Assembly: GCA_040414495.1 (NCBI GenBank)
Contig: JBEDUI010000054.1
Coordinates: forward strand, 15,253-79,252
Direction: 5' to 3'
Length of the DNA: 64,000 bases
DNA from: Mycobacteriales bacterium
Lineage (GTDB): Bacteria > Actinomycetota > Actinomycetes > Mycobacteriales > QHCD01
Below are positions 24,778 to 64,000 of this stretch, one piece after another (the first letter of the stretch is position 1; each line of letters opens with the position of its first letter). A program made the position numbers and the translations under genes. The notes under the pieces were generated by a model, which saw only the letters and a list, made by a program, of their open reading frames with translations, searched no databases and was not told the origin of the DNA.

Positions 24778-26139
24778 CTAATCGGCCGGGCCGTCCGAAC
24801 CGGCTGGATATTCCCTGAGCGGCACCAGGTTTCGCGACCACGCGGAAAGTACCGGCGCCACGACTCTCCACGACTCTTCGGCCTCGTCGCCGCGGATAGA
24901 CAGAGCCGGATCGCCGTTCAGTACGTCAAGCAGCAGCCTTCCGTACGGAGGCAATTCGGGTGTCGCCAGTTGCGCGGTCAGCCGGAGCGGGGCGAACGTC
25001 CGCGCGCGGGCGCCGGTCCCGGTCAGGTCGAGCGTCAGGGTTTCCGGGTCGAGGCCGAAGCGCAGGATATTGGGCAGGACGTCCCCGCTGTGTCCGAACG
25101 GCATGTGTGGCACCGATCGGAAATGTACGGTGACCTCTTTCCGATCGTCGCCGAGCGCTTTACCACTGCGTAGTCGGAACTTCGTTCCGGCCCATCGCCA
25201 ATTGTCGAGTTCCAGGTCCATCTCGGCGTATGTTTCGGTGCCGCGATTCGGGTCCACTCCCTCTTCGTCGCGGTAGGCGGGGATTTCATGGTCACCGATA
25301 CGGCCCGCACCATAACGGCCCCGGCGCGTGCGATGTCGTACGTCGTTATCTGTGAGGGGACGCACGGACCGCAATACGTCGACTTTCCGGTCCCGTAGGT
25401 CGCGCTCGCCGAGGCTTATCGGCGGTTCCATCGCTACCAGGCAGAGCAATTGCAGCAGGTGATTCTGCACCATGTCCTTGAGTGCCCCGGCGCCGTCGTA
25501 ATATCCAGCCCTGCCCTCGAGCGTGAGGCGCTCGTCCCAGACAATCTCTACCTCGGAAATATGGGCGCTGTTCCACAGTGGCTCGAGCACCCGGTTGGCC
25601 AGCCGGCTGCCGAGCACATTCTCGACAGTCGTCATGGCCAGAAAATGGTCGACCCGGAAAACAGCGTCCTCGGGCGCCACATCAGCCAACAGCCGATTCA
25701 GCTCGATCGCACTGGCCAGGTCCACGCCAAACGGCTTTTCCAGCACGATCCGGCTGCCCGGCGGCAGGCCCGCCTCATGCAGCGTGTCTACGGCGCGCGA
25801 GAACAGCGCCGGCGGCAGCGCGAGGTAGACGGCGACGGGCCGGTCATCACCGGAGATGATCGACGCGACATCGGCGACCTGGGTGATATCCGCGCGCCGA
25901 AAGCTGGCCGATGCCGCGATGGCTTTGCCCGCATCGACCGGCCACGCGTCGGCATAACGGTCGAGCTGTGCGCTGACCCAGGACTGGAACTGATCATTGG
26001 TCCGCTCACCGCGGTCAGCGCAGGTCAACTCGAACTGGTCGGTGAGCTGCCCGGCCGCTCGCAGGGCAACCAGGCCGGGCAACAAATACCGCGCGCTGAG
26101 GTCGCCGGTGCCACCGAAAATAGCTAGCCGATCGATCAT
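24778..26139 (-). CDS. glucose-6-phosphate-dehydrogenase-family protein (divergent Zwf paralog)
   Basis: 453 aa. GGTGDLSARYLLPGL, EKPFG, RVDHFLAMTTVENVLG (canonical RIDHYLGKE lost its GKE), MVQNHLLQLLCLVAMEPP. Confidence 0.85.
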   Translation of the reverse strand: MIDRLAIFGGTGDLSARYLLPGLVALRAAGQLTDQFELTCADRGERTNDQFQSWVSAQLDRYADAWPVDAGKAIAASASFRRADITQVADVASIISGDDRPVAVYLALPPALFSRAVDTLHEAGLPPGSRIVLEKPFGVDLASAIELNRLLADVAPEDAVFRVDHFLAMTTVENVLGSRLANRVLEPLWNSAHISEVEIVWDERLTLEGRAGYYDGAGALKDMVQNHLLQLLCLVAMEPPISLGERDLRDRKVDVLRSVRPLTDNDVRHRTRRGRYGAGRIGDHEIPAYRDEEGVDPNRGTETYAEMDLELDNWRWAGTKFRLRSGKALGDDRKEVTVHFRSVPHMPFGHSGDVLPNILRFGLDPETLTLDLTGTGARARTFAPLRLTAQLATPELPPYGRLLLDVLNGDPALSIRGDEAEESWRVVAPVLSAWSRNLVPLREYPAGSDGPAD

Positions 26140-30476: not shown

Positions 30477-31193
30477 GTGACTGACGAGGACCGGCTGCAC
30501 AGCTTATGGCGCATAGTGCTCGTCGCCGGCCAACGGCCGAGCGAGGACGGTTGGGCGGCCGCGGTCGCTCGCGGATGCGCAGCGGTTTTGCCGAGCATCG
30601 ACAGTGTGGCGATCACCCTGCGAACCCGTACCGCCGGCCCCGAGGAGCTGTTCGGCGCCAGCGACCCGTGGGCAGCGCGCCTGGACGAAGCCCAATTCAC
30701 GATGGGCGAAGGCCCCGGCGCGGATGCCCACCGCCTGGGCAGCCCGGTCTTCGTGCCCGACCTCGTCGGGGACAGCGCCCGCTGGCCAGCTTTCAGCGAT
30801 GCCGCGCTGAGCGACGGAGCGGCCGCGATTTTCGCGTTCCCGCTCCACACCGGCGCCATCAAACTGGGAACGCTAACGCTTTACCGGTGCCGGACCGGTG
30901 GCCTGCCCCGACCCGAATCGGCCGACGCCGCCGTGCTGGCCGATTACGTGACCCACGCCGTTCTGGCCGACATGGCGCTGGTCCAGCTTGCTGGAGGACA
31001 GTGGGCACCGCCGAACGAGTCCTATCACCAGGTCAGCATCGCCACCGGGATGCTGGCCGCACGACTGCACATCACTTTGCCGCAGGCGTTCGCCCGGTTG
31101 CAGGCGCGCGCGTTCGCGGAGGGACGATCGCTTCGACAGGTCGCCGACGACGTCGTCGCCTGGCGTACCGAATTGAGTCAGTGGACGGAGTAA
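30477..31193 (+). CDS. GAF + ANTAR domain RNA-binding regulator
   Basis: 238 aa. C-terminal ANTAR VSIATGMLAARLHITLPQAFARLQARAFAEGRSLRQVADDVV. Confidence 0.75.
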   Translation: MTDEDRLHSLWRIVLVAGQRPSEDGWAAAVARGCAAVLPSIDSVAITLRTRTAGPEELFGASDPWAARLDEAQFTMGEGPGADAHRLGSPVFVPDLVGDSARWPAFSDAALSDGAAAIFAFPLHTGAIKLGTLTLYRCRTGGLPRPESADAAVLADYVTHAVLADMALVQLAGGQWAPPNESYHQVSIATGMLAARLHITLPQAFARLQARAFAEGRSLRQVADDVVAWRTELSQWTE

Positions 31194-31197
31194 TCCC

Positions 31198-31935
31198 GTG
31201 AGCACATCCGCGGCACGCAGCACCCTCGCCGAGACGCTCTCGGATATCACAACCGGGCTCGTCGTCGACCCCTCCGATACGTTCGGCTCCCTGTCCGCGG
31301 TCGTAGCCGCCTCCACCGAGTTGCTGCCCGCCGTGGCCGCGGGAATCCTGATCGCCGACCCGCGTGGTGGCGTCACCGTCCTGATCGCGTCCAACGAAAC
31401 CGCGCAGTTCATCGAGATGCTGCAGGCGCAGTACGAGCAGGGACCTTGTCTGGACTGCGTCACCAGCGGCCAGCTGGTCCGCTCGGACGACCTGACCCAG
31501 GAGGATCGCTGGCCCGATCTGGCCCAAGCCGCCCGCGATGCCGGCTACACGGCGGTCGACGCAATACCGCTGCGACTCGGGCGGAACACCCTCGGCGGCC
31601 TGAACCTCTTTTACAGCAATGACACCCAGGCGAGCGACGACGATCTCCTCATCGGCAAAACCCTCGCCGACCTGACCGTTCTCGCCCTGACCCAGGACAT
31701 CCCGACCCATCGGGAGGCGCTGTTCACCAGAGCCACGCTGAACGCCCTCAACGACCGCGTACTCGTGGGCCACGCCATCGGCATGATCGCCGGAACGCTG
31801 AACCTCACCCCCGACGCGGCCCGGCTGCGTCTGCAACACCATGCCAACGCCACCCAGATCCCGCTCCCCCGGCTCGCGGCCGCCATCACCGACCGGCGAC
31901 TGGCCCCCGGCGAGCTGGCGACTCCATCGCATTGA
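31198..31935 (+). CDS. GAF + ANTAR domain RNA-binding regulator (tandem paralog)
   Basis: 245 aa. ANTAR VLVGHAIGMIAGTLNLTPDAARLRLQHHANATQIPLPRLAAAI. Confidence 0.75.
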   Translation: MSTSAARSTLAETLSDITTGLVVDPSDTFGSLSAVVAASTELLPAVAAGILIADPRGGVTVLIASNETAQFIEMLQAQYEQGPCLDCVTSGQLVRSDDLTQEDRWPDLAQAARDAGYTAVDAIPLRLGRNTLGGLNLFYSNDTQASDDDLLIGKTLADLTVLALTQDIPTHREALFTRATLNALNDRVLVGHAIGMIAGTLNLTPDAARLRLQHHANATQIPLPRLAAAITDRRLAPGELATPSH

Positions 31936-32759: not shown

Positions 32760-33986
32760 TTAGAGTTCCCCGATCCGCCCGGTCAGATAACGTCGTTCGG
32801 CCTCGGTCGGCGCCAACCCGAGCGCCTGCTCGTACGCCGCTCTTGCCTCGTCCTTGCGGCCGTCCCGTCTGAGCAGATCGGCCCGGGTCGCGTACAGCAG
32901 GTGATATTTCTCGAGCCGACCGGACTCGACCAGCCCATCCACCAGCGCGAGGCCGGCCGGAATACTCTCCGCCATCGCCACCGCGACGGCGCGATTGAGC
33001 TCGACCACCGGCGAGGGCGCCAGCCGCAGCAACTCGTTGTAGAGCCGGGCTATCTGAGGCCAGTCCGTATTCCCGACGTCGGCCGCGGTGTCGTGGCAGG
33101 CTGCGATCGCGGCCTGCACCTGGTACGGACCGCCGCGGCGCATGCTGATCGCGTCGTCCAACACCGCGACGCCTTCGTCGATCAACCCGCGATCCCACTG
33201 GGCTCGGTCCTGATGTTCCAGGGGCACTAACACGCCATCATCGGTACGGGTGGCCCGCCGCGCCTCGTTGAGCAACATCAACGCCAGCAGTCCGCGTGGC
33301 TCGGGTTCGGTCGGCATCAGCCGGGTCAGCACTCGGGCCAGGTGGATCGCCTCGGCCGCCAGGGCACGCGTCTCGTCGTGCTCGTCGTAGCCCTCGTTGA
33401 AGATCAGGTAGAGCACCGCGAGTACCGCCGCCAGCCGCTGCGGCAGCAGTTCGGCGGGCGGGACCCGGTACGGAATTCCGGCCTCGGAAATCTTGCGTTT
33501 GGCCCGGACCAGGCGTTGCGCCATCGCCGATTCGGCGGTCAGGAACGCCCGGGCGATTTCGCCGGTGCTCAGTCCGGTCAGCGTGCGCAACGTCAGGGCG
33601 ACCCGGGCCTCGAACGGCAATGCCGGATGGCAGCAGGTGAAGATCAGGCGCAGGCGTTCGTCCGGGATCTCCTCGATCGATGGCTCTTCTCGGACAAATA
33701 CGGCGAGTTGCCGCAGTTTCGCCCGGCCGGTGGCGTCGCGACGCAGGCGGTCGGTCGCCCGGTTGCGCGCGGTGGTGGTGAGCCACGCACCCGGATTGTT
33801 CGGAATGCCGTCGCGCCGCCACGTCGCCAACGCCGCCGCGAACGCATCCTGCGCGCAATCCTCGGCCAAATCCCAGTCCCCGGTCAGTCCGATCAGCGTC
33901 GCGACGACCTGACCCCAGGCATCCCGATATGCCGCGTCGACCGCGGTGCGTACGGCGTCATCGGACGCCCGCATTCCCACCGTCAT
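32760..33986 (-). CDS. ECF sigma factor with long C-terminal TPR-like extension (ECF42-type)
   Basis: Trimmed to MTVGMRASDD (ATGA overlap with the YciI stop). Sigma-2 and sigma-4 regions followed by about 230 aa of extension. Confidence 0.8.
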   Translation of the reverse strand: MTVGMRASDDAVRTAVDAAYRDAWGQVVATLIGLTGDWDLAEDCAQDAFAAALATWRRDGIPNNPGAWLTTTARNRATDRLRRDATGRAKLRQLAVFVREEPSIEEIPDERLRLIFTCCHPALPFEARVALTLRTLTGLSTGEIARAFLTAESAMAQRLVRAKRKISEAGIPYRVPPAELLPQRLAAVLAVLYLIFNEGYDEHDETRALAAEAIHLARVLTRLMPTEPEPRGLLALMLLNEARRATRTDDGVLVPLEHQDRAQWDRGLIDEGVAVLDDAISMRRGGPYQVQAAIAACHDTAADVGNTDWPQIARLYNELLRLAPSPVVELNRAVAVAMAESIPAGLALVDGLVESGRLEKYHLLYATRADLLRRDGRKDEARAAYEQALGLAPTEAERRYLTGRIGEL

Positions 33987-34318
33987 TCCCACAGTGGACG
34001 GATCTCGACACCGCCCCATTGCGCGTACGGATGGCCGGCGGCGATCACAATCGCCTCGTCGAGGTCGGCGCAGTCGATGACGACAATGCCGCCGACGAAG
34101 TCCTTCGTCTCGGCGTACGGTCCGTCCGAGACGAGCGTCTCCCCCTTGCGCACCCGCACCGACGTGGCATCGGCGATCGGCCGCAACCGCGCGCCGTACA
34201 GCCTGCCGCCCCGCCGGTCCAGATCCGCCAGCCACGCCTGGTGCACAGGATCGGCGTCCAGTTCCTCGTTGCTCGGAGACTTGGACTCGTCGTCGCAGAT
34301 CAGCAGCACATACTTCAT
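33983..34318 (-). CDS. YciI/DGPF-family protein
   Basis: Trimmed to MKYVLLICDDE... GPYAETKDFVGGIVVIDCADLDEAI. Confidence 0.8.
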   Translation of the reverse strand: MKYVLLICDDESKSPSNEELDADPVHQAWLADLDRRGGRLYGARLRPIADATSVRVRKGETLVSDGPYAETKDFVGGIVVIDCADLDEAIVIAAGHPYAQWGGVEIRPLWE

Positions 34319-34388
34319 ACGCCAGAGTCTGACACTCGAGTCCGACAACGGCTGCCGCACCGCCGTCGGCGCCAGCCGTCAGATTTCT

Positions 34389-34627
34389 CCCATGGTCGAA
34401 GCCCGTAGCACGCAGCTGATCCAGGCGAGCCCGGACCAGATCCTCGAATTCGTGATGGACATCGAGCAATACGCGCGGATCGACGCGAAAATCCGGCCGG
34501 TGCCGTGGAGTCGGCGCAACGAAATGTCACCGAATTCGGCCCGTTGTTGCGTCGCCGGCTACCCGGAGAAGTGGACGAGGAGCTCTTACTGGCCAAACGC
34601 GAACTGGAGAATTCGACTGCGCAGTAA
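34389..34627 (+). pseudogene. short, frameshifted remnant of an SRPBCC/START-like gene
   Basis: MVEARSTQLIQASPDQILEFVMDIEQYARIDAKIRPVPWSRR, then the frame changes to ..NVTEFGPLLRR.. and stops at 34627. This is far shorter than a normal SRPBCC protein. Confidence 0.3.
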
Positions 34628-39276: not shown

Positions 39277-39333
39277 GAATCAAGTCAATGCCACGCGGCG
39301 GGACCGGTATACGGCCGAAAGTCACGACGTGCG

Positions 39334-43968: not shown

Positions 43969-44157
43969 CTAATGAGTCGCGCCCATCTCGTGCAGCAGGC
44001 TGATGAGCTCCGCTCGGGTCGGTGCCATGGCAACGACGCCAACGGTATCCTCGGCCACCCAGACTGTCCGCTCGTCAATGGTCCGCGATTCGATTTTTAT
44101 ATGGCTGTGTACGACCCATTGCGGTAGGTCATGGTGGTGCTCAGGTTGATAAGTCAT
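43969..44157 (-). CDS. small hypothetical protein (possibly DUF1902/HicB-fold-like)
   Basis: Trimmed to MTYQPEHHHDLPQWVVHSHIKIESRTIDERTVWVAEDTVGVVAMAPTRAELISLLHEM (62 aa). RBS AAAGGTG. Confidence 0.4.
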   Translation of the reverse strand: MTYQPEHHHDLPQWVVHSHIKIESRTIDERTVWVAEDTVGVVAMAPTRAELISLLHEMGATH

Positions 44158-44183
44158 CTGATTTACACCTTTTGTTGCCCGGG

Positions 44184-44197
44184 CCGTACAAGGACCG
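44184..44197. promoter_or_regulatory. DevR/DosR-like box (minus-strand reading CGGTCCTTGTACGG)
   Basis: GGWCCTT core. GTACAAGGACC is identical to 62426-62436. A second, Mtb-consensus-like box GGGCCAATAGTCAC lies at 44362-44375. Confidence 0.3.
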
Positions 44198-44423
44198 ATC
44201 GCCGACGCCGCAGACGTGGAATACGGCTGGCGTCGAGGAGAGTCCGTCCGCACGAGCGGCTTGGAGATGGGTGGTGTGCGGAACACCCGCAGCTTCCGCC
44301 CCTTATCTTTCCGGCTCTCCTCGACAATTCAAGTAGATGCCGGTCCGCGACCATCGTGGTAGGGCCAATAGTCACTAGCGCAGTCATACGACACCAACGC
44401 ACGCCCGGTCGCGATCGCAGCTC

Positions 44424-48558: not shown

Positions 48559-49614
48559 CTACGGTGCTCGCGAATACCCGAGATACGGCCTGACCGGGGC
48601 CTGGCTGCACAGCACTTCATGGACCGCACGACGCGGTGTCAACGCCGGTTCCGGTCCCGGCCCGGGCCATCCGATCCGCAACAGAATCTGCGGCGTTCCC
48701 ACACCGCCCAAAACTCGGCGCATCAACGACTGCGGTCCGGGAACCTCCAGCGGCTGCGTATACGGCGAAGCGCTCAGCCCCAATTCCGTTGCCTCAACCA
48801 GGACTCGGCCCAGCGCTTCCCCGGCCACCAGCCGGTCCAAGCGACTGTCGCTACCCGTGCCGATCACCAGCATCAAAGGCCGCTCGATCTGCACGGGCGA
48901 GGGAACCGTCATCGTTCCAGGCAAATCGCGCAACGGCACATCACAGCGCCGATCTGGCAGATCGGGCACAGCCGAAACCGGGATGCCGTCGGGCGAATCA
49001 TCAGCTCGACCCGACCATCGCTTCAACTCCCGCGCATAGGACGGGTCGGCCGCCTCGATCTCGTTGGCCCGACCCGCGGCCACGGCCAGGATCAACCGGT
49101 CTTCCCGACGGCGCACCTGGTGTGCGAAAACGCGCTGCTCATGGGCGACTGCCTGCAGACGCGCCACTATTTCCGGTTCGACCGGACGGTCGGCGAATGG
49201 CCGGCGGTCCGTACGCCGCCGCCGCGCCGCCGCCGCCAGATGCAGCGATTCCTCCGAGACGGCAGCCCGTCCGCTGACCAGAATCGTCGCCAAATGATCG
49301 TCATTCAGTGGATTCGGCTGCCGGGTGACCGTCGTACGCCATCCGGCCGCCGCCAGCGCCAGCTGGGCCAGATACAGCGCGGCCCCGCAGCTGATCAACA
49401 ACGCCCGACTACCCGGATCGGCGACCCGCAGTTGCCGCGATCGGTCGGCATACAGATCGATGGCGCCCAGCCGCAGATCGCCAATGCCGGAATGCTCGTC
49501 GATCCGCCACCACCAGGGCTGCGTGTTGTGAATGGAGGGAGCACGAATTGCCAGTTCCACGGCGCTGGTCAGCACCCCGAGTCCCGGCTGTGCATCCGAC
49601 ATCGCGGTAGTCAT
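48559..49614 (-). CDS. Acg-family nitroreductase-like FMN-binding protein
   Basis: AIRAPSIHNTQPWWWRI. Start set at MTTAMSD (AGGAGG upstream). The track start 49629 is an alternative. Confidence 0.8.
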   Translation of the reverse strand: MTTAMSDAQPGLGVLTSAVELAIRAPSIHNTQPWWWRIDEHSGIGDLRLGAIDLYADRSRQLRVADPGSRALLISCGAALYLAQLALAAAGWRTTVTRQPNPLNDDHLATILVSGRAAVSEESLHLAAAARRRRTDRRPFADRPVEPEIVARLQAVAHEQRVFAHQVRRREDRLILAVAAGRANEIEAADPSYARELKRWSGRADDSPDGIPVSAVPDLPDRRCDVPLRDLPGTMTVPSPVQIERPLMLVIGTGSDSRLDRLVAGEALGRVLVEATELGLSASPYTQPLEVPGPQSLMRRVLGGVGTPQILLRIGWPGPGPEPALTPRRAVHEVLCSQAPVRPYLGYSRAP

Positions 49615-49699
49615 GACGCCTCCTGGCAATGGGCACAGTCTTCACTGCATTCCATCGCAAGTGGACAGCAACAGCCATGGCCCAAAGTCACCCGTATAC

Positions 49700-49738
49700 G
49701 GGACATTCGTCGGTTCGGAAGTTCAGGACCAATGGCCG
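49700..49738. promoter_or_regulatory. two loose DevR/DosR-like boxes (GGGACATTCGTCGG; AGGACCAATGGCCG) in the acg/usp divergent promoter
   Basis: Read directly. Both deviate from the strict GGWCCTT core. Confidence 0.25.
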
Positions 49739-49785
49739 TACCGGGTTCCGATCAGCAGATGAGACTGGAGGGAGGAGGAACTGCG

Positions 49786-51513: not shown

Positions 51514-52053
51514 ATGGATGTCCTTGTGGCCTACGCGACCGCACACGGGTCGACGGCGGGCGTTGCCCGCCACATCGGCCAACGACTAAGCGCCGCCGGC
51601 TACCAGGTTGCGATTCGACCGACGACCGAGATCGCTGATATTTCACCGTATTCGGCCGCCGTCGTCGGTAGCGCCATCCACAATGGCCATTGGCTCAAAT
51701 CCGGGGCCGACCTCATCGAGCAGAACCAGGTGTTCCTGCGCGAGCGGCCGGTGTGGCTGTTCAGCGTCAGCTCGCTGGGCGACCATAGCGGCGCTTTTGC
51801 CGACCCGATGAACCGATGGCTACGCAAAATGCGCAAGGAACCCACCCAGATTGCCGGATTCCGCGCAGCGATCAACCCTCGTGACCACCGCAACTTCACC
51901 GGTGCGATCGAGCCCTCGCATTGGTCCTGGTGGGGTCGGCTCGTATTCCGGATCTTTGGTGGACGTTTCGGTGATCACCGCGACTGGCCTGATATCGACC
52001 GGTGGTCGGACCGGATCATCGAGGAACTCGGTCGCGCCGGACTGGGACCTTAG
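51514..52053 (+). CDS. flavodoxin-domain protein
   Basis: 179 aa. MDVLVAYATAHGSTAGVARHIG. Confidence 0.75.
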   Translation: MDVLVAYATAHGSTAGVARHIGQRLSAAGYQVAIRPTTEIADISPYSAAVVGSAIHNGHWLKSGADLIEQNQVFLRERPVWLFSVSSLGDHSGAFADPMNRWLRKMRKEPTQIAGFRAAINPRDHRNFTGAIEPSHWSWWGRLVFRIFGGRFGDHRDWPDIDRWSDRIIEELGRAGLGP

Positions 52054-54768: not shown

Positions 54769-55767
54769 ATGATGTTTTTCCCGGCCGCCGAGGACGAGTG
54801 GGACGACAAACCGTTCTCACCCGAGGATGTGGCAGTGCTGTTACGGGCGGCGTCGGCAGCGCCTTCTCTGTATAACAGCCAGCCGTGGCGTTTTACGGTC
54901 GTTGATCGCGAGATTGGCGTATTCGCCGATCCGGAGCGCGTCAGTCCCGTGGCCGATCCGGATGGCCGGCAACAAATCATCGCCTGTGCCGCCGCGGTAT
55001 TGAACCTGCGGCTAGCCGTTCGGCATTTGGGTTATCAGCCTCTGGTGTCGCTGTGGCCCAGCCGCGATGATCCCGGTCATCTGGCCACCATACGGCGGGG
55101 TCCCTCAACTGACAGCGGTGTCGCCGAACGTCGGCTCTATGCGCAGATACAGGCCCGGCATACCCATCGGCAGCGTCTGGACGAACGCCCGATATATCCG
55201 GCCGCACGGCAAGCCGTTCGATATGCCGCCGCTATTGAAGGCGCATGGCTGCGTCCCATTGCCGCCGCGGACGAGGTGCGGGACACCATCGATCTGACGA
55301 TTCGCGCCATACGTACGCAGCAATCCGACCCGCGGATTAATGCAGAAATGTGGCACTGGCTCAGCACTGATGCCGGGCCGCAGGGTATGCCGCTCGCGGC
55401 CTGGCGCGGTGCCGCATTTCCGGTACCTGGGTTGGATCAACGGCTCGAGGGTGACTGGCACGATGAGGTGGCCCGCCAGCTGAGCACGTATCCATTCTTT
55501 GTCTTGGCGACGCCGCACGACACCGCGACCGATTGGCTCGTGGCCGGTCAGGCCCTGCAGCGGGCGTTGTTGACCGCCACGGAATTCTATATTGCCGCTT
55601 CCTTTTTCAATCAGATCGTGGAGGTCCCAGCCTTGCGGGTCGAACTGGCCGAGCGGCTTTCGCTCAGCGCGTGTCCACAAATGATTCTTCGGCTGGGCTA
55701 CCGGGTTGCCGGCGTCGACCCGGCAACGATCAACGGTCGTAGGGACCTCTCGGACGTCATTTCCTAA
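54769..55767 (+). CDS. Acg-family nitroreductase-like FMN-binding protein, paralog 2
   Basis: 332 aa. AASAAPSLYNSQPWRFTV. Confidence 0.8.
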   Translation: MMFFPAAEDEWDDKPFSPEDVAVLLRAASAAPSLYNSQPWRFTVVDREIGVFADPERVSPVADPDGRQQIIACAAAVLNLRLAVRHLGYQPLVSLWPSRDDPGHLATIRRGPSTDSGVAERRLYAQIQARHTHRQRLDERPIYPAARQAVRYAAAIEGAWLRPIAAADEVRDTIDLTIRAIRTQQSDPRINAEMWHWLSTDAGPQGMPLAAWRGAAFPVPGLDQRLEGDWHDEVARQLSTYPFFVLATPHDTATDWLVAGQALQRALLTATEFYIAASFFNQIVEVPALRVELAERLSLSACPQMILRLGYRVAGVDPATINGRRDLSDVIS

Positions 55768-58780: not shown

Positions 58781-58794
58781 GGGACCTTCGCCTC
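58781..58794. promoter_or_regulatory. DevR/DosR-like box GGGACCTTCGCCTC
   Basis: GGACCTTCGCCTC is identical to 62467-62479. 106-119 nt upstream of the CBS-BON start. Confidence 0.35.
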
Positions 58795-58899
58795 CTGAAC
58801 CACGGGGCTCTTCGGCTTTTACTGGGAGTTGTCAACCCGGAAGACCGACGTTGTCGCCCTTATGCAAGGCGATTCGCTCCAACACGAAGAGGGATCGAG

Positions 58900-59585: not shown

Positions 59586-60383
59586 TCAACGATCGAGGGC
59601 GGCTCTGATCAGCCCGTAATGTCCGTCGTACCGGTGGTAGAGCACGCTGGCATGTTCGTCCGCACTGTCCACAAAGAACACGAACGGTAACCCGGCCAGC
59701 TCGAGCCGATCTTTCGCCTCGGCAACGGTGAGCCGTGCCGCAGGTTGCGGGCTCACGGTGATCCGACCCGACGGGTGCCGCGTCGGCGACACCACGGCGG
59801 CAAGGCGATAACCGGTCTCCCCCGACCGGTAGATCACCGATTCCAATCCGGTGTCGACGTCGGTGAACAGATAGAAGTCATAGTCCATCAGGTCCATTTC
59901 GGTGGCGGCGTCCGTGCACGACTCGGGTGTGAGCGCCAGCGATTTACGCCGCACAATTCGGCGCTCCCCAAAAGGCCTCGGGAAATACCCGGGTCGGCGC
60001 GTCGGCTCCTGGCCGTGCCGCCACTCGTGCTCCTCGCTCTTGGGCATGCCACCGCGGCGGGCCTCCCAGTGCCGGGCGAGCCGATCCAGCCGGCGGGATA
60101 ACCGCTCCCGCAACAGGTCGATTGCCTGAGTCATCGTGGGCGCCGCGACCTGCGCGCGTACCAAACGACCATCAAGGTCCAGGTTGGCCTGGGCTATTGC
60201 CGGTCGACTCACTGCCGGGTTCGCCGACTCGGTCAGCTTGGCGCGCGCGAAAAGGATCGGCTCATGGGCGTGATTGGCCAATGCCACAATCCGGGAACGC
60301 ACGTATTCGGGCATGTTTGGGCGCACCTGGCCACGAACCACGACCGCCACATCGGGCATCGGCTGACTCGTACGTTGTCGCAT
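59586..60383 (-). CDS. long hibernation-promoting-factor-like protein (Rv0079-like, S30AE + sigma-54-modulation C-terminal domain)
   Basis: 265 aa. RBS GAGGAGG 7 nt before ATG 60383. Lies 12 nt downstream of ftsH. Confidence 0.8.
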   Translation of the reverse strand: MRQRTSQPMPDVAVVVRGQVRPNMPEYVRSRIVALANHAHEPILFARAKLTESANPAVSRPAIAQANLDLDGRLVRAQVAAPTMTQAIDLLRERLSRRLDRLARHWEARRGGMPKSEEHEWRHGQEPTRRPGYFPRPFGERRIVRRKSLALTPESCTDAATEMDLMDYDFYLFTDVDTGLESVIYRSGETGYRLAAVVSPTRHPSGRITVSPQPAARLTVAEAKDRLELAGLPFVFFVDSADEHASVLYHRYDGHYGLIRAALDR

Positions 60384-60395
60384 TGTCGAACCTCC

Positions 60396-62360
60396 TCACC
60401 CTGAGGTGACTGGCGAGAGCGGCTTGGCTGGCCCACCGTGCACGACTTCGAGCACGACCGACCCGTCGATGGTTTCGTGATAAACGAGGAGGGCCGAAAG
60501 CCGATCCAATGCGTCGCGATGCTCCCGCAACATATCGACCGCCCGCTGCTCCGCCTCTCGCAAAAGCCGCGACACTTCCTCGTCCACGATGCGTTGGGTC
60601 TGCTCGGAGTACGGCCGGCGCACCTGGTCGGCCGCGCTTTCACCGAGGAACTGCGGCTCGCCGGTTCCGTACCCGACCGGACCGACCACTGTGGACAGAC
60701 CGAATTCACGTACCATTCGTGTCGCCACCTGCGTCGCACCGGACAGGTCGTTGGCGGCCCCGGTCGACGCCTCGCCGAATACCACCAGCTCCGCCGCCCG
60801 ACCGCCCAACCGCACGGTCAGCAGATCGGTCAGATAGCCCTCGCTGTACAAATGCCGCTCCGCCTCCGGTAATTGTTCGGTCGAACCGAGCGCCATTCCG
60901 GAGGGCAGGATCGTCACCTTCGCCACCGGGTCGGCGTGCTCGCACAACGCGGCCAGCAACGCGTGCCCGGACTCGTGCACCGCGACCGCATGCCGCTCCT
61001 CGGGCAGCAACGCGTTCGAGGTTTCGCGACGGCCCAGCAGAACCCGGTCGCGGGCGGCGTCGAGATCCTCGCGGGTCAGCAGAGTACGGCCGGCGCGTAC
61101 GGCGTTGATGGCCGCCTCGTTCAGCAGGTTGGCCAGATCCGCGCCGGAAAACCCCGGGGTCGCGCGGGCGGTCACGTCCAGATCGACGTCCTCGGCGAGT
61201 TGCTTGCCCAGCGCGTGCACTTCAAGAATCGCCGCCCGCTCGGCCTGATTCGGCAGCGGCACCACGACCTGCCGGTCGAACCGGCCCGGTCGCAGCAGCG
61301 CCGGATCCAGCGTCTCCGGCCGGTTGGTGGCGGCCAGCACCACGATCCCGCTGCTCTGGTCGAAGCCGTCCAATTCGGCCAGCAACTGGTTGAGCGTCTG
61401 CTCGCGTTCCTCGTGCCCGCCCTGCGCCATTCCGCGGCGACCGCCGATCGCATCCAATTCGTCGATAAAGATGATCGCCGGCGCGCGCTTGCGGGCTTCC
61501 TCGAACAGGTCGCGAACCCGGGAAGCGCCTACACCGACGAACATTTCCACGAACGCCGATCCGGTCACCGAGAGAAATGGCACTTCTGCTTCACCGGCTA
61601 CCGCGCGGGCGAGCAGCGTCTTGCCGGTTCCCGGCGGCCCGACCATGATCACCCCGCGCGGTCCCTTGGCACCAGCGACGACGTACCGGCCCGGATGGCG
61701 CAGGAAATCCACGACCTCGCTGATTTCCTGTTTCACACCGTCATATCCGGCCACATTGGCAAAACGCGTATCGGGCCGGACAGACTCGATGATTTTCGCC
61801 TTGGATCGGCCGAATCCGCTCATTCCGCCGGCCAGCGACCGTTGAGCGCGCCCGCCAATCCAGATAAAGAAACCCACCAGGATCAGGAATGGCAGAAACG
61901 CCAGCAGGGCCGACAGCCAGGCGCTGCCGCTGCTGCGGGTCGCGGTGATCGGCACCTGTTTGGTCCGCAACGCCTGCTGCAGCTGGGAAGTACCCAGCGC
62001 GGTGGGCAGTTGGCTGGTGAAACGCTCGCCGGTCTTCAGCTCACCGGTCACCGCGCCTTTGTCGTTGATCGACACCTCGGAAACGTTGCCCGCCTGAACC
62101 TTTGTGACCAGCGCGGTGTACGAGAGCGACGTCGTCTTATGCGTATTGCTCGACAGACTCGACACGACCAGCACCGCGACCGTTCCGGCGAGGAGAACCG
62201 CCCACAGAACCCATCGCCAGACCGGTGTTTTCGGCGGTGTTGCCGGTGGCGGCGGATCGCGTGGCGGGCCGGGCTTCGGGCTCACCGACAGGTGCCGGTT
62301 GGGCCACTGCGCGGCATTCAACATCCGGACCACAGCGCGTTCTCGCTTCTCATTCGGCAT
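60396..62360 (-). CDS. ftsH: ATP-dependent zinc metalloprotease FtsH
   Basis: 654 aa. Two N-terminal TMs, [26 protein letters not shown]. Confidence 0.85.
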
Positions 62361-62400
62361 TCCGTGTACTCAGTGTCAACGACCACTCGACCGGACGTCA

Positions 62401-62479
62401 GGGTCCTTGTGCCCTCGTTGCTGGGTACAAGGACCAACTGAGAGTCCTTCCGGCGCCCGGCGGCGAGGACCTTCGCCTC
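62401..62479. promoter_or_regulatory. array of four DevR/DosR-like boxes (GGGTCCTTGTGCCC, GGGTACAAGGACCA, GAGTCCTTCCGGCG, AGGACCTTCGCCTC)
   Basis: Box starts at 62401, 62423, 62442 and 62466. Located in the ftsH / 4Fe-4S-gene divergent promoter. Confidence 0.4.
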
Positions 62480-62542
62480 TGGCCGTAGCCGAGGTGGTCG
62501 GCGTTGAGTGCTGGCAAGGGCAGCCCGACCGAGAGGGTGCTG

Positions 62543-63655
62543 ATGGATTCGCCAACCGCGCTGCTCGACCGGGCCGGCCTGGACCGGTTGATCGAGGTCC
62601 TGCGGGCCGACGGATATACCGTGATCGGCCCGACCGTACGCGACAACGCCATCGTGCTGGCTGAGCTTGACTCGGGCGCGGGCCTCCCGGCTGGCTGGGG
62701 CGTACGAACCGGACCGGGACAATACCGGCTGTACCGACGCGACGACGCGGCCGTGTTCGCGCATTCAGCCGGCCCGCAGTCCTGGAAGAACGTGCTGCAC
62801 CCGGCGCGGCGGCGACTGTGGTCTTCGGACTCTCCCGATGAATACGAGCCGGCGCCGAAATACGCCCTATTGGGGGTACGCGGCTGCGATCTGGCCGCCA
62901 TCGGGACGCTCGCCGGAGTGCTCGGTGCGGGCGCACATCCCGACGGCGCATTTCGCCGTACCCATTCCCAGCTGTTTGTGGTGGCGGCCAATTGCACCGA
63001 GCCGGGCGAGGTGTGTTTCTGCACCTCGATGGGCACCGGCCCGGCCGCTGGTCCGGGCTACGACCTGGGCCTGACCGAGCGGATCGACGAAGCCGGTCAC
63101 CGGTTCGTGGTCGATATCGCCAGCGACGCGGGTGCCCGAATAATGGCCCGGATATCGCACAATGACGCGTCGTCTGAGGACATCGCGCAGGCGCGGGCGC
63201 AGGTCGCGGCCGCCGCCGGGCGGATGGGCCGGTCCATGCCCGAGGTCGATCTGCGCGCGCTGTTGCGTGACAACCGGGAATCCCCGCACTGGCAGGACGT
63301 TGCCGACCGCTGCCTGACCTGCGGCAACTGCACAATGGTCTGCCCGACCTGTTTTTGCACCACCACCGAGGATGTCACCGATCTGACCGGCGACCACGCC
63401 GAACGATGGCAACGCTGGGCGTCGTGCTTCGAGCTGGATTTCTCTTACGTACACGGCGGAAATGTGCGTCAGTCCGGCGCCAGCCGCTACCGGCAGTGGA
63501 TGACCCACAAACTCAGCACCTGGTACGACCAATTCGGCAGCTCCGGTTGCGTGGGCTGCGGCCGCTGCATTGCCTGGTGTCCGGTCGGCATCGACATTAC
63601 GGCCGAGGCCGCTGCCCTCGCCGCCGGGTCAGGCGCGGACGATGCGCACCGATGA
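62543..63655 (+). CDS. 4Fe-4S dicluster protein, AsrA/HydB-like (beta subunit of a group-3b-type hydrogenase/sulfhydrogenase module)
   Basis: Start set at ATG 62543 (GAGAGGG upstream; track TTG 62504 possible). [16 protein letters not shown] and [15 protein letters not shown]. Confidence 0.75.
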
Positions 63656-64000
63656 TCCGCTGGCCGGCATCGCGACGTTTTCTCATTTGTCGCCGGCCGA
63701 ACGCGCCGTGATTTCTGGTACCACCCGGGTCGTGCAATTTCCCGCCGGAGAACGCCTTTTCGACGAAGGAGAGTCGGCGGACGGTTGCTGGCTCATCCAG
63801 GAGGGCCGAATCGCCTTGGATATAGCCGTTCCCGGCCGCGGTGACGTCGTCGTCCAGACGCTGGGCCCGGGCGATCTGCTGGGCTGGTCCTGGCTGGTGG
63901 CGCCATTTCGTTGGCATTTCGGTGCGCGAGCTGTACAGCCGACGACGGCCGTCGCATTCGACACCGCACGGCTCCGGGAACTGGCTGAAGCGGATCCGGC
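63642..64000 (+). CDS. cyclic-nucleotide-binding-domain protein; 3' end runs off the window
   Basis: Own translation: [60 protein letters not shown]...[11 protein letters not shown]. Overlaps the upstream gene by 14 nt. Confidence 0.65.

Follow-up and report, generated by a model that had tools for sequence, protein, structure and literature searches.

Genes at the locus

The locus is a divergent intergenic region of 182 bp (62361–62542) within a 64-kb window, by which we mean the whole stretch of actinobacterial DNA (65% GC) that was analysed. To its left, a minus-strand gene (60396–62360) encodes an FtsH paralogue, 654 aa as called, with the Pfam domains FtsH_ext, AAA, and Peptidase_M41 and a score of 697 bits against NCBIfam FtsH_fam (cut-off 600). 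To its right, a plus-strand gene (62543–63655; Pfam Fer4_22) encodes the Fe-S (beta) subunit of a group-3b, Hyd3-like [NiFe] hydrogenase operon; its best NCBIfam similarity is to a sulfhydrogenase beta subunit and falls below the cut-off. The original prediction had placed a four-box activator array in a 182-bp gap between these genes, and the gap has that length if the genes begin where they were called on Logan contig L081 (ATG 62360 for ftsH, ATG 62543 for hyd).

Alternative starts for the FtsH paralogue are available at GTG 62336 and ATG 62324. Members of its family share a conserved N-terminal tail, ITR[IV]R..H.H....PGPP (loci L040, L047, L051, and L082–L094), and alignment to these orthologues favours ATG 62324 or GTG 62336 as the start of the protein over the called 62360. 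An S30AE/HPF-like gene (59586–60383, minus strand; Pfam Ribosom_S30AE_C and Ribosomal_S30AE) follows 12 nt downstream of ftsH and is probably co-transcribed with it. On the hydrogenase side, the beta-subunit homologue of a related Mycobacterium (L012) is followed by genes for gamma, delta, the NiFe large subunit, and a maturation protease. In the source organism, beta is followed first by a cNMP-binding gene and next by one that is NAD-binding and gamma-like. This cNMP-binding gene (63642–64000 of the window; 2040–2504 of L081) stands alone between beta and gamma, encodes 154 aa with no HTH domain, and is absent from the L012 operon.

Both genes belong to a dormancy-type island at 39–64 kb, recognised from Pfam and NCBIfam matches to gene families typical of DosR regulons. 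The island holds a ctpF-like P-type ATPase, a SulP transporter, an M50+CBS protease, two universal stress proteins (USPs), a DeoC aldolase, a flavodoxin, a GNAT/ADP-forming acyl-CoA synthetase, an Rv2632c-like gene, an Rv0571c-like PRTase, and a CBS/BON protein, together with the S30AE/HPF-like protein and the FtsH paralogue. It also includes two nitroreductase-family genes, one assigned to the Acg family by NCBIfam (54769–55767) and one with a weak Pfam Nitroreductase match (48559–49641, minus strand). No gene for a NarL-type response regulator or for a heme/GAF sensor kinase was found within the 64-kb window (the genome record is a 92.7-kb contig). Upstream of the island lie two adjacent GAF+ANTAR genes of the RNA-binding antiterminator type (30477–31935) and an ECF-type sigma factor fused to DUF6596 and TPR repeats (32760–34469).

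The pairing of this FtsH paralogue with the hydrogenase operon was conserved in none of 80 genome loci. Exact copies of the protein were confined to the source contig and one Logan contig of 3.3 kb, and the nearest homologue is 74% identical, with no closer relative on record. A metagenome scan with the FtsH N-terminus returned relatives with 51–57% identity over the N-terminal query (~70% over the whole protein), none of them paired with the hydrogenase operon. Since there is no close relative and the pairing is unconserved, phylogenetic footprinting of 62361–62542 was ruled out.

Motif discovery and the window scan

As an independent view of the regulator's sites, we collected the 300 nt upstream of the hydrogenase operon from 50 actinobacterial loci. 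Unseeded expectation-maximization (EM) with a zero-order background on these regions returned mostly codon-like junk and recovered a DosR-like motif, GGGACCTTCGGCCC, one time only; EM on the window's own intergenic regions gave GATC-rich junk in two runs and was set aside. Seeded EM refinement converged on [GT]GGAC[CGT]TT[CTA]GGCCC, with one strong site in 24 of the 50 loci, mostly 57–101 nt before the start codon. A weight matrix was built from those 24 sites of other actinobacteria and contains no sequence from the window.

The motif agrees with the OsdR consensus of Streptomyces, AGGGCCGATCGGCCCT (PMC5069765). A search of the window with the strict M. tuberculosis core, GGGACNNNNGTCCC, allowing up to two mismatches, showed no enrichment (45 matches versus 64 expected); unlike that core, the local motif has a right half of the GGCC type.

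In the window, the 99.9th percentile of matrix scores is 2.0 bits and the 99.99th is 8.9 bits. The highest-scoring promoter matches (given by the start of the 20-mer) lie at 39309 (19.5 bits, minus strand) in the divergent region between the ABC and ctpF-like genes, at 44359 (19.3 bits, minus strand) upstream of a small ORF, at 49722 (11.7 bits, plus strand) in the divergent region between the nitroreductase and USP genes, at 62463 (11.1 bits, plus strand), which is box 4 of the predicted array, and at 52041 (10.3 bits, plus strand) upstream of the acyl-CoA synthetase gene. They are followed by two plus-strand matches upstream of the CBS/BON gene, at 58802 (8.9 bits) and 58778 (8.8 bits), and by box 1 at 62398 (7.6 bits, plus strand). 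These are the best matches in island promoters, and a few positions in coding sequence also reach 10–11.6 bits.

The scan bears on one alternative, that such matches are chance occurrences in GC-rich non-coding DNA and that both genes are regulated in some other way. False positives certainly exist, because 15 of the 27 window matches of at least 7.6 bits fall in coding sequence. Yet only ~0.07 matches of that strength were expected in 182 bp and two were seen (P ~0.002), and their location, orientation, and gene context agree with those in other species; we regard chance as a very improbable explanation.

Several other features emerged from the scan. The sites at 39309 and 44359 are the two strongest DosR-type boxes of the window, with weak neighbours 22 and 19 bp off; the centre of the former is 42.5 nt from the ABC ATPase start codon (39276), a distance that points to a leaderless transcript. 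The segment that lies downstream of the 44359 box (43969–44340) holds only a small ORF, 62 or 105 aa long, which lacks a Pfam match and shows falling GC3; the minus strand of the segment contains, as read by eye, a long-range inverted repeat, GTCGAGGAGAG...CTCTCCTCGAC. This segment could be a DosR-regulated small RNA or structured leader instead of a protein gene. Within the glucose-6-phosphate dehydrogenase coding sequence, a cluster of matrix matches and GGGNC...GTCCC-like strings (24989–25107) ranks third in the window as a four-box array and is probably due to chance or codon usage.

The four candidate boxes

The boxes of the original prediction read as claimed, starting at 62401, 62423, 62442, and 62466, with start-to-start spacings of 22, 19, and 24 nt and centres at 62407.5, 62429.5, 62448.5, and 62472.5. 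They differ widely in quality when scored with the cross-species matrix, and only boxes 1 and 4 are distinguishable from chance by sequence.

Box 4 (AGGACCTTCGCCTC; 62466–62479, plus strand) is the best site of the four, its 11.1 bits placing it at the 99.99th percentile of the window. Its centre lies 70 nt from the hydrogenase ATG and its 20-mer starts at -80, within the -57 to -101 interval occupied by the strong sites of most of the 24 other species. A 13-mer, GGACCTTCGCCTC, is identical in box 4 (62467–62479) and in the box at 58782–58794, upstream of the CBS/BON gene. Box 4 is probably the primary box of the hydrogenase promoter.

Box 1 (GGGTCCTTGTGCCC; 62401–62414, plus strand) is a credible DosR-type candidate site for the ftsH side, at the 99.96th percentile of the window and with its centre 47 nt from the ftsH ATG. 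In the numbering of PMC3177182, both end boxes retain G5 and C7 of the better half-site. On the ftsH strand, box 1 reads GGGCACAAGGACCC, with the same halves as the Streptomyces sequence GGGCCGTT[CT]GACCC: each of the three Streptomyces loci with an FtsH paralogue has an OsdR-like box of 9.1–14.3 bits placed 77–100 nt upstream of that gene. A further counterpart, GGGCACAAAGACCC, occurs upstream of the hydrogenase operon of another Mycobacterium (L025), in a ctpF/hyd divergent region and 38 bp from the primary box. Soil-metagenome orthologues of the FtsH paralogue had no matrix match of at least 7 bits upstream. The soil loci L082–L094 carry a different conserved block ~80 nt upstream of the gene, GGGCATTAC(A)GAC...TGGCCGTTTAGGGTG, with a likely -10 hexamer TAGGGT, and regulation may differ in that lineage, where this block comes without a DosR-type matrix match.

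The inner boxes score as background. Box 2 (GGGTACAAGGACCA; 62423–62436, minus strand), an inverted near-copy of box 1, reaches -11.9 bits (92.7th percentile of the window), and the matrix does not recognise it as a site; its 11-mer GTACAAGGACC is found again, exactly, at 44186. Box 3 (GAGTCCTTCCGGCG; 62442–62455, plus strand) is a single half-site (GAGTC+CTT) with -5.2 bits in the frame of the original prediction and -4.2 bits one base rightward (98.4–98.8th percentile), not above chance, and is at best a candidate secondary site. Together with box 1 it forms a direct repeat, AGGGTCCTT/AGAGTCCTT.

Box 4 is followed, as had been noted, by the string TGGCCGTAG (62480–62488, plus strand). Related GGCCGTA strings, taken in the original prediction to flank boxes elsewhere, are indeed present at 44182, 49734, and 56728, as well as at 62481 and, on the minus strand, at 39310. 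At the 39309 and 49722 sites the string is the right half of the motif (GGAC.TT.GGCCGTA), and the copy after box 4 is displaced 6 nt beyond that box's own right half. We rejected GGCCGTA as an independent flanking motif: it is mostly the right half-site of the motif itself.

Tandem arrangement of the boxes

Tandem boxes are common in the island. A neighbour of at least 1.5 bits occurs 19–25 bp away from four of the five other primary sites of the island (binomial 4.5e-6), in the pairs 39309 + 39331 (22 bp apart), 44359 + 44378 (19 bp), and 58778 + 58802 (24 bp) and the triple 49675 + 49697 + 49722 (22 and 25 bp). The best of these arrays occupies the 144-bp divergent gap at 49642–49785 between the nitroreductase-family gene (48559–49641, minus strand) and a USP gene (49786, plus strand), with centres at 49684.5, 49706.5, and 49731.5 and scores of 7.5, 1.7, and 11.7 bits. 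Secondary boxes at these other promoters score 1.7–8.9 bits, versus background for boxes 2 and 3.

The predicted array had been called the densest cluster of the motif in the window, a description that survives for the half-site word and fails for the full motif. G[AT]CCTT occurs four times within 72 nt here, the sole cluster of three or more copies in the window (P ~0.002 by random placement, for a word picked post hoc after the data were seen). By matrix score, the four-box array at 62401–62479 ranks fourth in the window, is absent from the top eight two- and three-box arrays, and is exceeded by tandem arrays at 49.7, 44.4, 39.3, and 58.8 kb.

All DevR promoters of M. tuberculosis carry two to four boxes in tandem; binding is nucleated at a conserved primary box and extends cooperatively to secondary boxes 21 bp away, whose sequence is poorly conserved (PMC3177182). 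The four boxes here fit this geometry, with spacings of 22/19/24 bp, a total span of 80 bp, and the good boxes at the two ends. The original prediction of a cooperative, DevR-type multi-box array is supported as to the class of regulator, and the claim of four functional boxes is not, since boxes 2 and 3 lie at chance level (P = 0.16 for a neighbour as good as box 3). A cooperative four-box array is plausible by analogy with narK2-Rv1738, and the sequence statistics give it no support.

Boxes 1 and 4 could instead be the only regulator sites, one per promoter, with boxes 2 and 3 unbound and no four-box array. The percentiles of boxes 2 and 3 (92.7th and ~98.5th), the chance probability of a neighbour like box 3, and the single strong site found upstream of the hydrogenase operon in most other species all speak for this arrangement. 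It is, however, at odds with M. tuberculosis, where a lone box suffices at none of the DevR promoters and secondary sites may be almost impossible to recognise (PMC3177182); the presence of G[AT]CCTT four times in 72 nt is also unusual, and the 22- and 24-bp spacings are close to two helical turns. On balance we consider a two-site arrangement rather unlikely, if the likeliest of the alternatives to the reading favoured below.

The inverted repeat of boxes 1 and 2

Boxes 1 and 2 were described as near-perfect reverse complements, and they are: 12 of 14 positions match over the boxes and 12 of 13 over 62402–62414 and 62423–62435. With flanking TCAG/CTGA the repeat extends to ~17 pairs, forming a dyad or potential hairpin at 62398–62442 in which box 1 and box 2 are separated by an 8-nt loop. 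A 12/13 inverted repeat was reached in 2 of 400 shuffles and in 3 of 351 window tiles, and this inverted repeat exceeds what tandem boxes require. The predicted RNA fold is stable on both strands (plus, -29.3 kcal/mol, z -5.7; minus, -23.9 kcal/mol, z -4.5), and on the plus strand the sole mismatch becomes a G-U pair. A partial twin, CCTTTTGTTGCCC/GGGCCGTACAAGG, occurs at 44168–44196 with the exact 11-mer GTACAAGGACC and a different arm spacing; taken as a whole, 44168–44196 is an imperfect palindrome, CCTTTTGTTGCCCGGGCCGTACAAGG (73%), without a loop.

Known kinds of element were considered for the dyad and rejected. As an intrinsic terminator or structured RNA, it has a stable stem but no T-run after it on either strand, and an Rfam scan of the region gave sub-threshold noise only, with no relevant family. 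The Rex operator is TTGTGAA-N4-TTCACAA; read as a Rex or CRP/FNR operator, the TTGTG...TACAA dyad has a half-site spacing ~10 nt too long.

The strength of the repeat raises the alternative that 62398–62442 is a separate element, either the operator of another symmetric regulator or a DNA or RNA hairpin, which overlaps or mimics a DosR half-site and acts alongside box 4. The extent of the pairing, the fold of the plus strand, and the twin at 44.18 kb would fit such an element. Weighing against it, DosR geometry puts the dyad upstream of both predicted starts (given below), where neither transcript would include it; the dyad has neither a T-run nor an Rfam match, box 1 by itself, as a protein site, has counterparts in other species, and the twin is imperfect. 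We judge this alternative distinctly improbable. Nearly as doubtful, in our estimation, is the related idea that the 45-bp dyad is a distinct regulatory element on top of DosR control, either an operator for some further symmetric regulator or a pair of inverted boxes of the tetramer type, that specifically gates the dormancy-associated FtsH paralogue.

Discussion

Our data suggest that the region is probably a DosR-type divergent promoter with an end box on each side. Assignment to the DosR/DevR/OsdR class (NarL family) is well supported by the gene content of the island, the motif upstream of the hydrogenase operon, the boxes of Streptomyces FtsH genes, and the 19–25-bp pairs at four other promoters, and the targets themselves fit a hypoxia/dormancy regulon given that gene content, the precedent of Hyd3 (PMC5430705), and the boxes of the Streptomyces FtsH paralogues. 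With somewhat better than even confidence, we favour a bidirectional, activator-dependent promoter in which box 4 would be primary for the hydrogenase operon and box 1 would serve, as a moderate site, the operon of the FtsH paralogue and the HPF-like protein.

By inference from M. tuberculosis, phosphorylated dimers of the regulator would bind boxes 4 and 1, and the promoter-proximal dimers, centred near -42, would recruit RNA polymerase via sigma region 4 and the alpha subunit (PMC13486717). Box 4 would then drive the hydrogenase operon rightward from a predicted start at ~62515, and box 1 the ftsH-HPF operon leftward from ~62365. Cooperative binding may extend to the weak boxes 2 and 3 and yield a P-S-S-P array of ~80 bp, as at narK2-Rv1738. 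No sigma-70 consensus promoter or terminator was found in 62361–62542. A -10-like hexamer, GACACT, fits the predicted start on the ftsH side; for the hydrogenase, no convincing -10 hexamer was seen where one is predicted.

If this reading is correct, it widens the DosR/OsdR-type dormancy regulon in an actinobacterium that has been little sampled, and a single bidirectional region would join a fermentative Hyd3-like hydrogenase, a stress-specific second FtsH protease, and a ribosome-hibernation factor. The regulatory principle is already well established, and the sole fresh points are the candidate membership of the FtsH paralogue in the regulon and the dyad, which is unexplained. The paralogue is not known from any DosR or OsdR regulon and receives no mention in the OsdR paper (PMC5069765). 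The DosR/OsdR-like box that it carries, both here and in the three Streptomyces, is a modest lead, a hint that membrane-protein quality control is regulated during hypoxic dormancy.

The hydrogenase side most closely recalls Hyd3 of M. smegmatis (MSMEG_3931–3927), an operon of the same type with the Fe-S beta subunit first and with USP, nitroreductase, and ribosome-factor genes adjoining. Hyd3 is induced 67-fold by hypoxia (PMC2799521) and is in the DosR regulon list of M. smegmatis (PMC5430705). The window organism differs in having a cNMP-binding gene between beta and gamma and an FtsH paralogue as the upstream neighbour. Likeness to the Streptomyces OsdR regulon lies in the GGGCC/GGCCC half-sites, which resemble the right half of the window motif, and in the FtsH paralogues near the hydrogenase cluster that carry an OsdR-like box; the OsdR motif is, however, a symmetric 16-mer, whereas the window sites are asymmetric (GGAC.TT.GGCC).

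The closest parallel in promoter architecture is the narK2-Rv1738 divergent region of M. tuberculosis, a class III DevR promoter with the order P2-S2-S1-P1 and an 80-bp footprint (PMC3177182). Several differences are apparent: the spacings here (22/19/24 bp) depart from a regular 21 bp, the left-hand pair of boxes consists of inverted copies, the targets are an FtsH paralogue and a hydrogenase, and the boxes are candidates read from sequence, where those of narK2-Rv1738 were footprinted. The two regions nevertheless share a divergent pair of dormancy-regulon genes and four candidate boxes over ~80 bp that are better at the ends and poor in the middle, and the end boxes here stand 37–60 nt from the start codons, within the 17–114 nt range of M. 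tuberculosis (PMC3177182).
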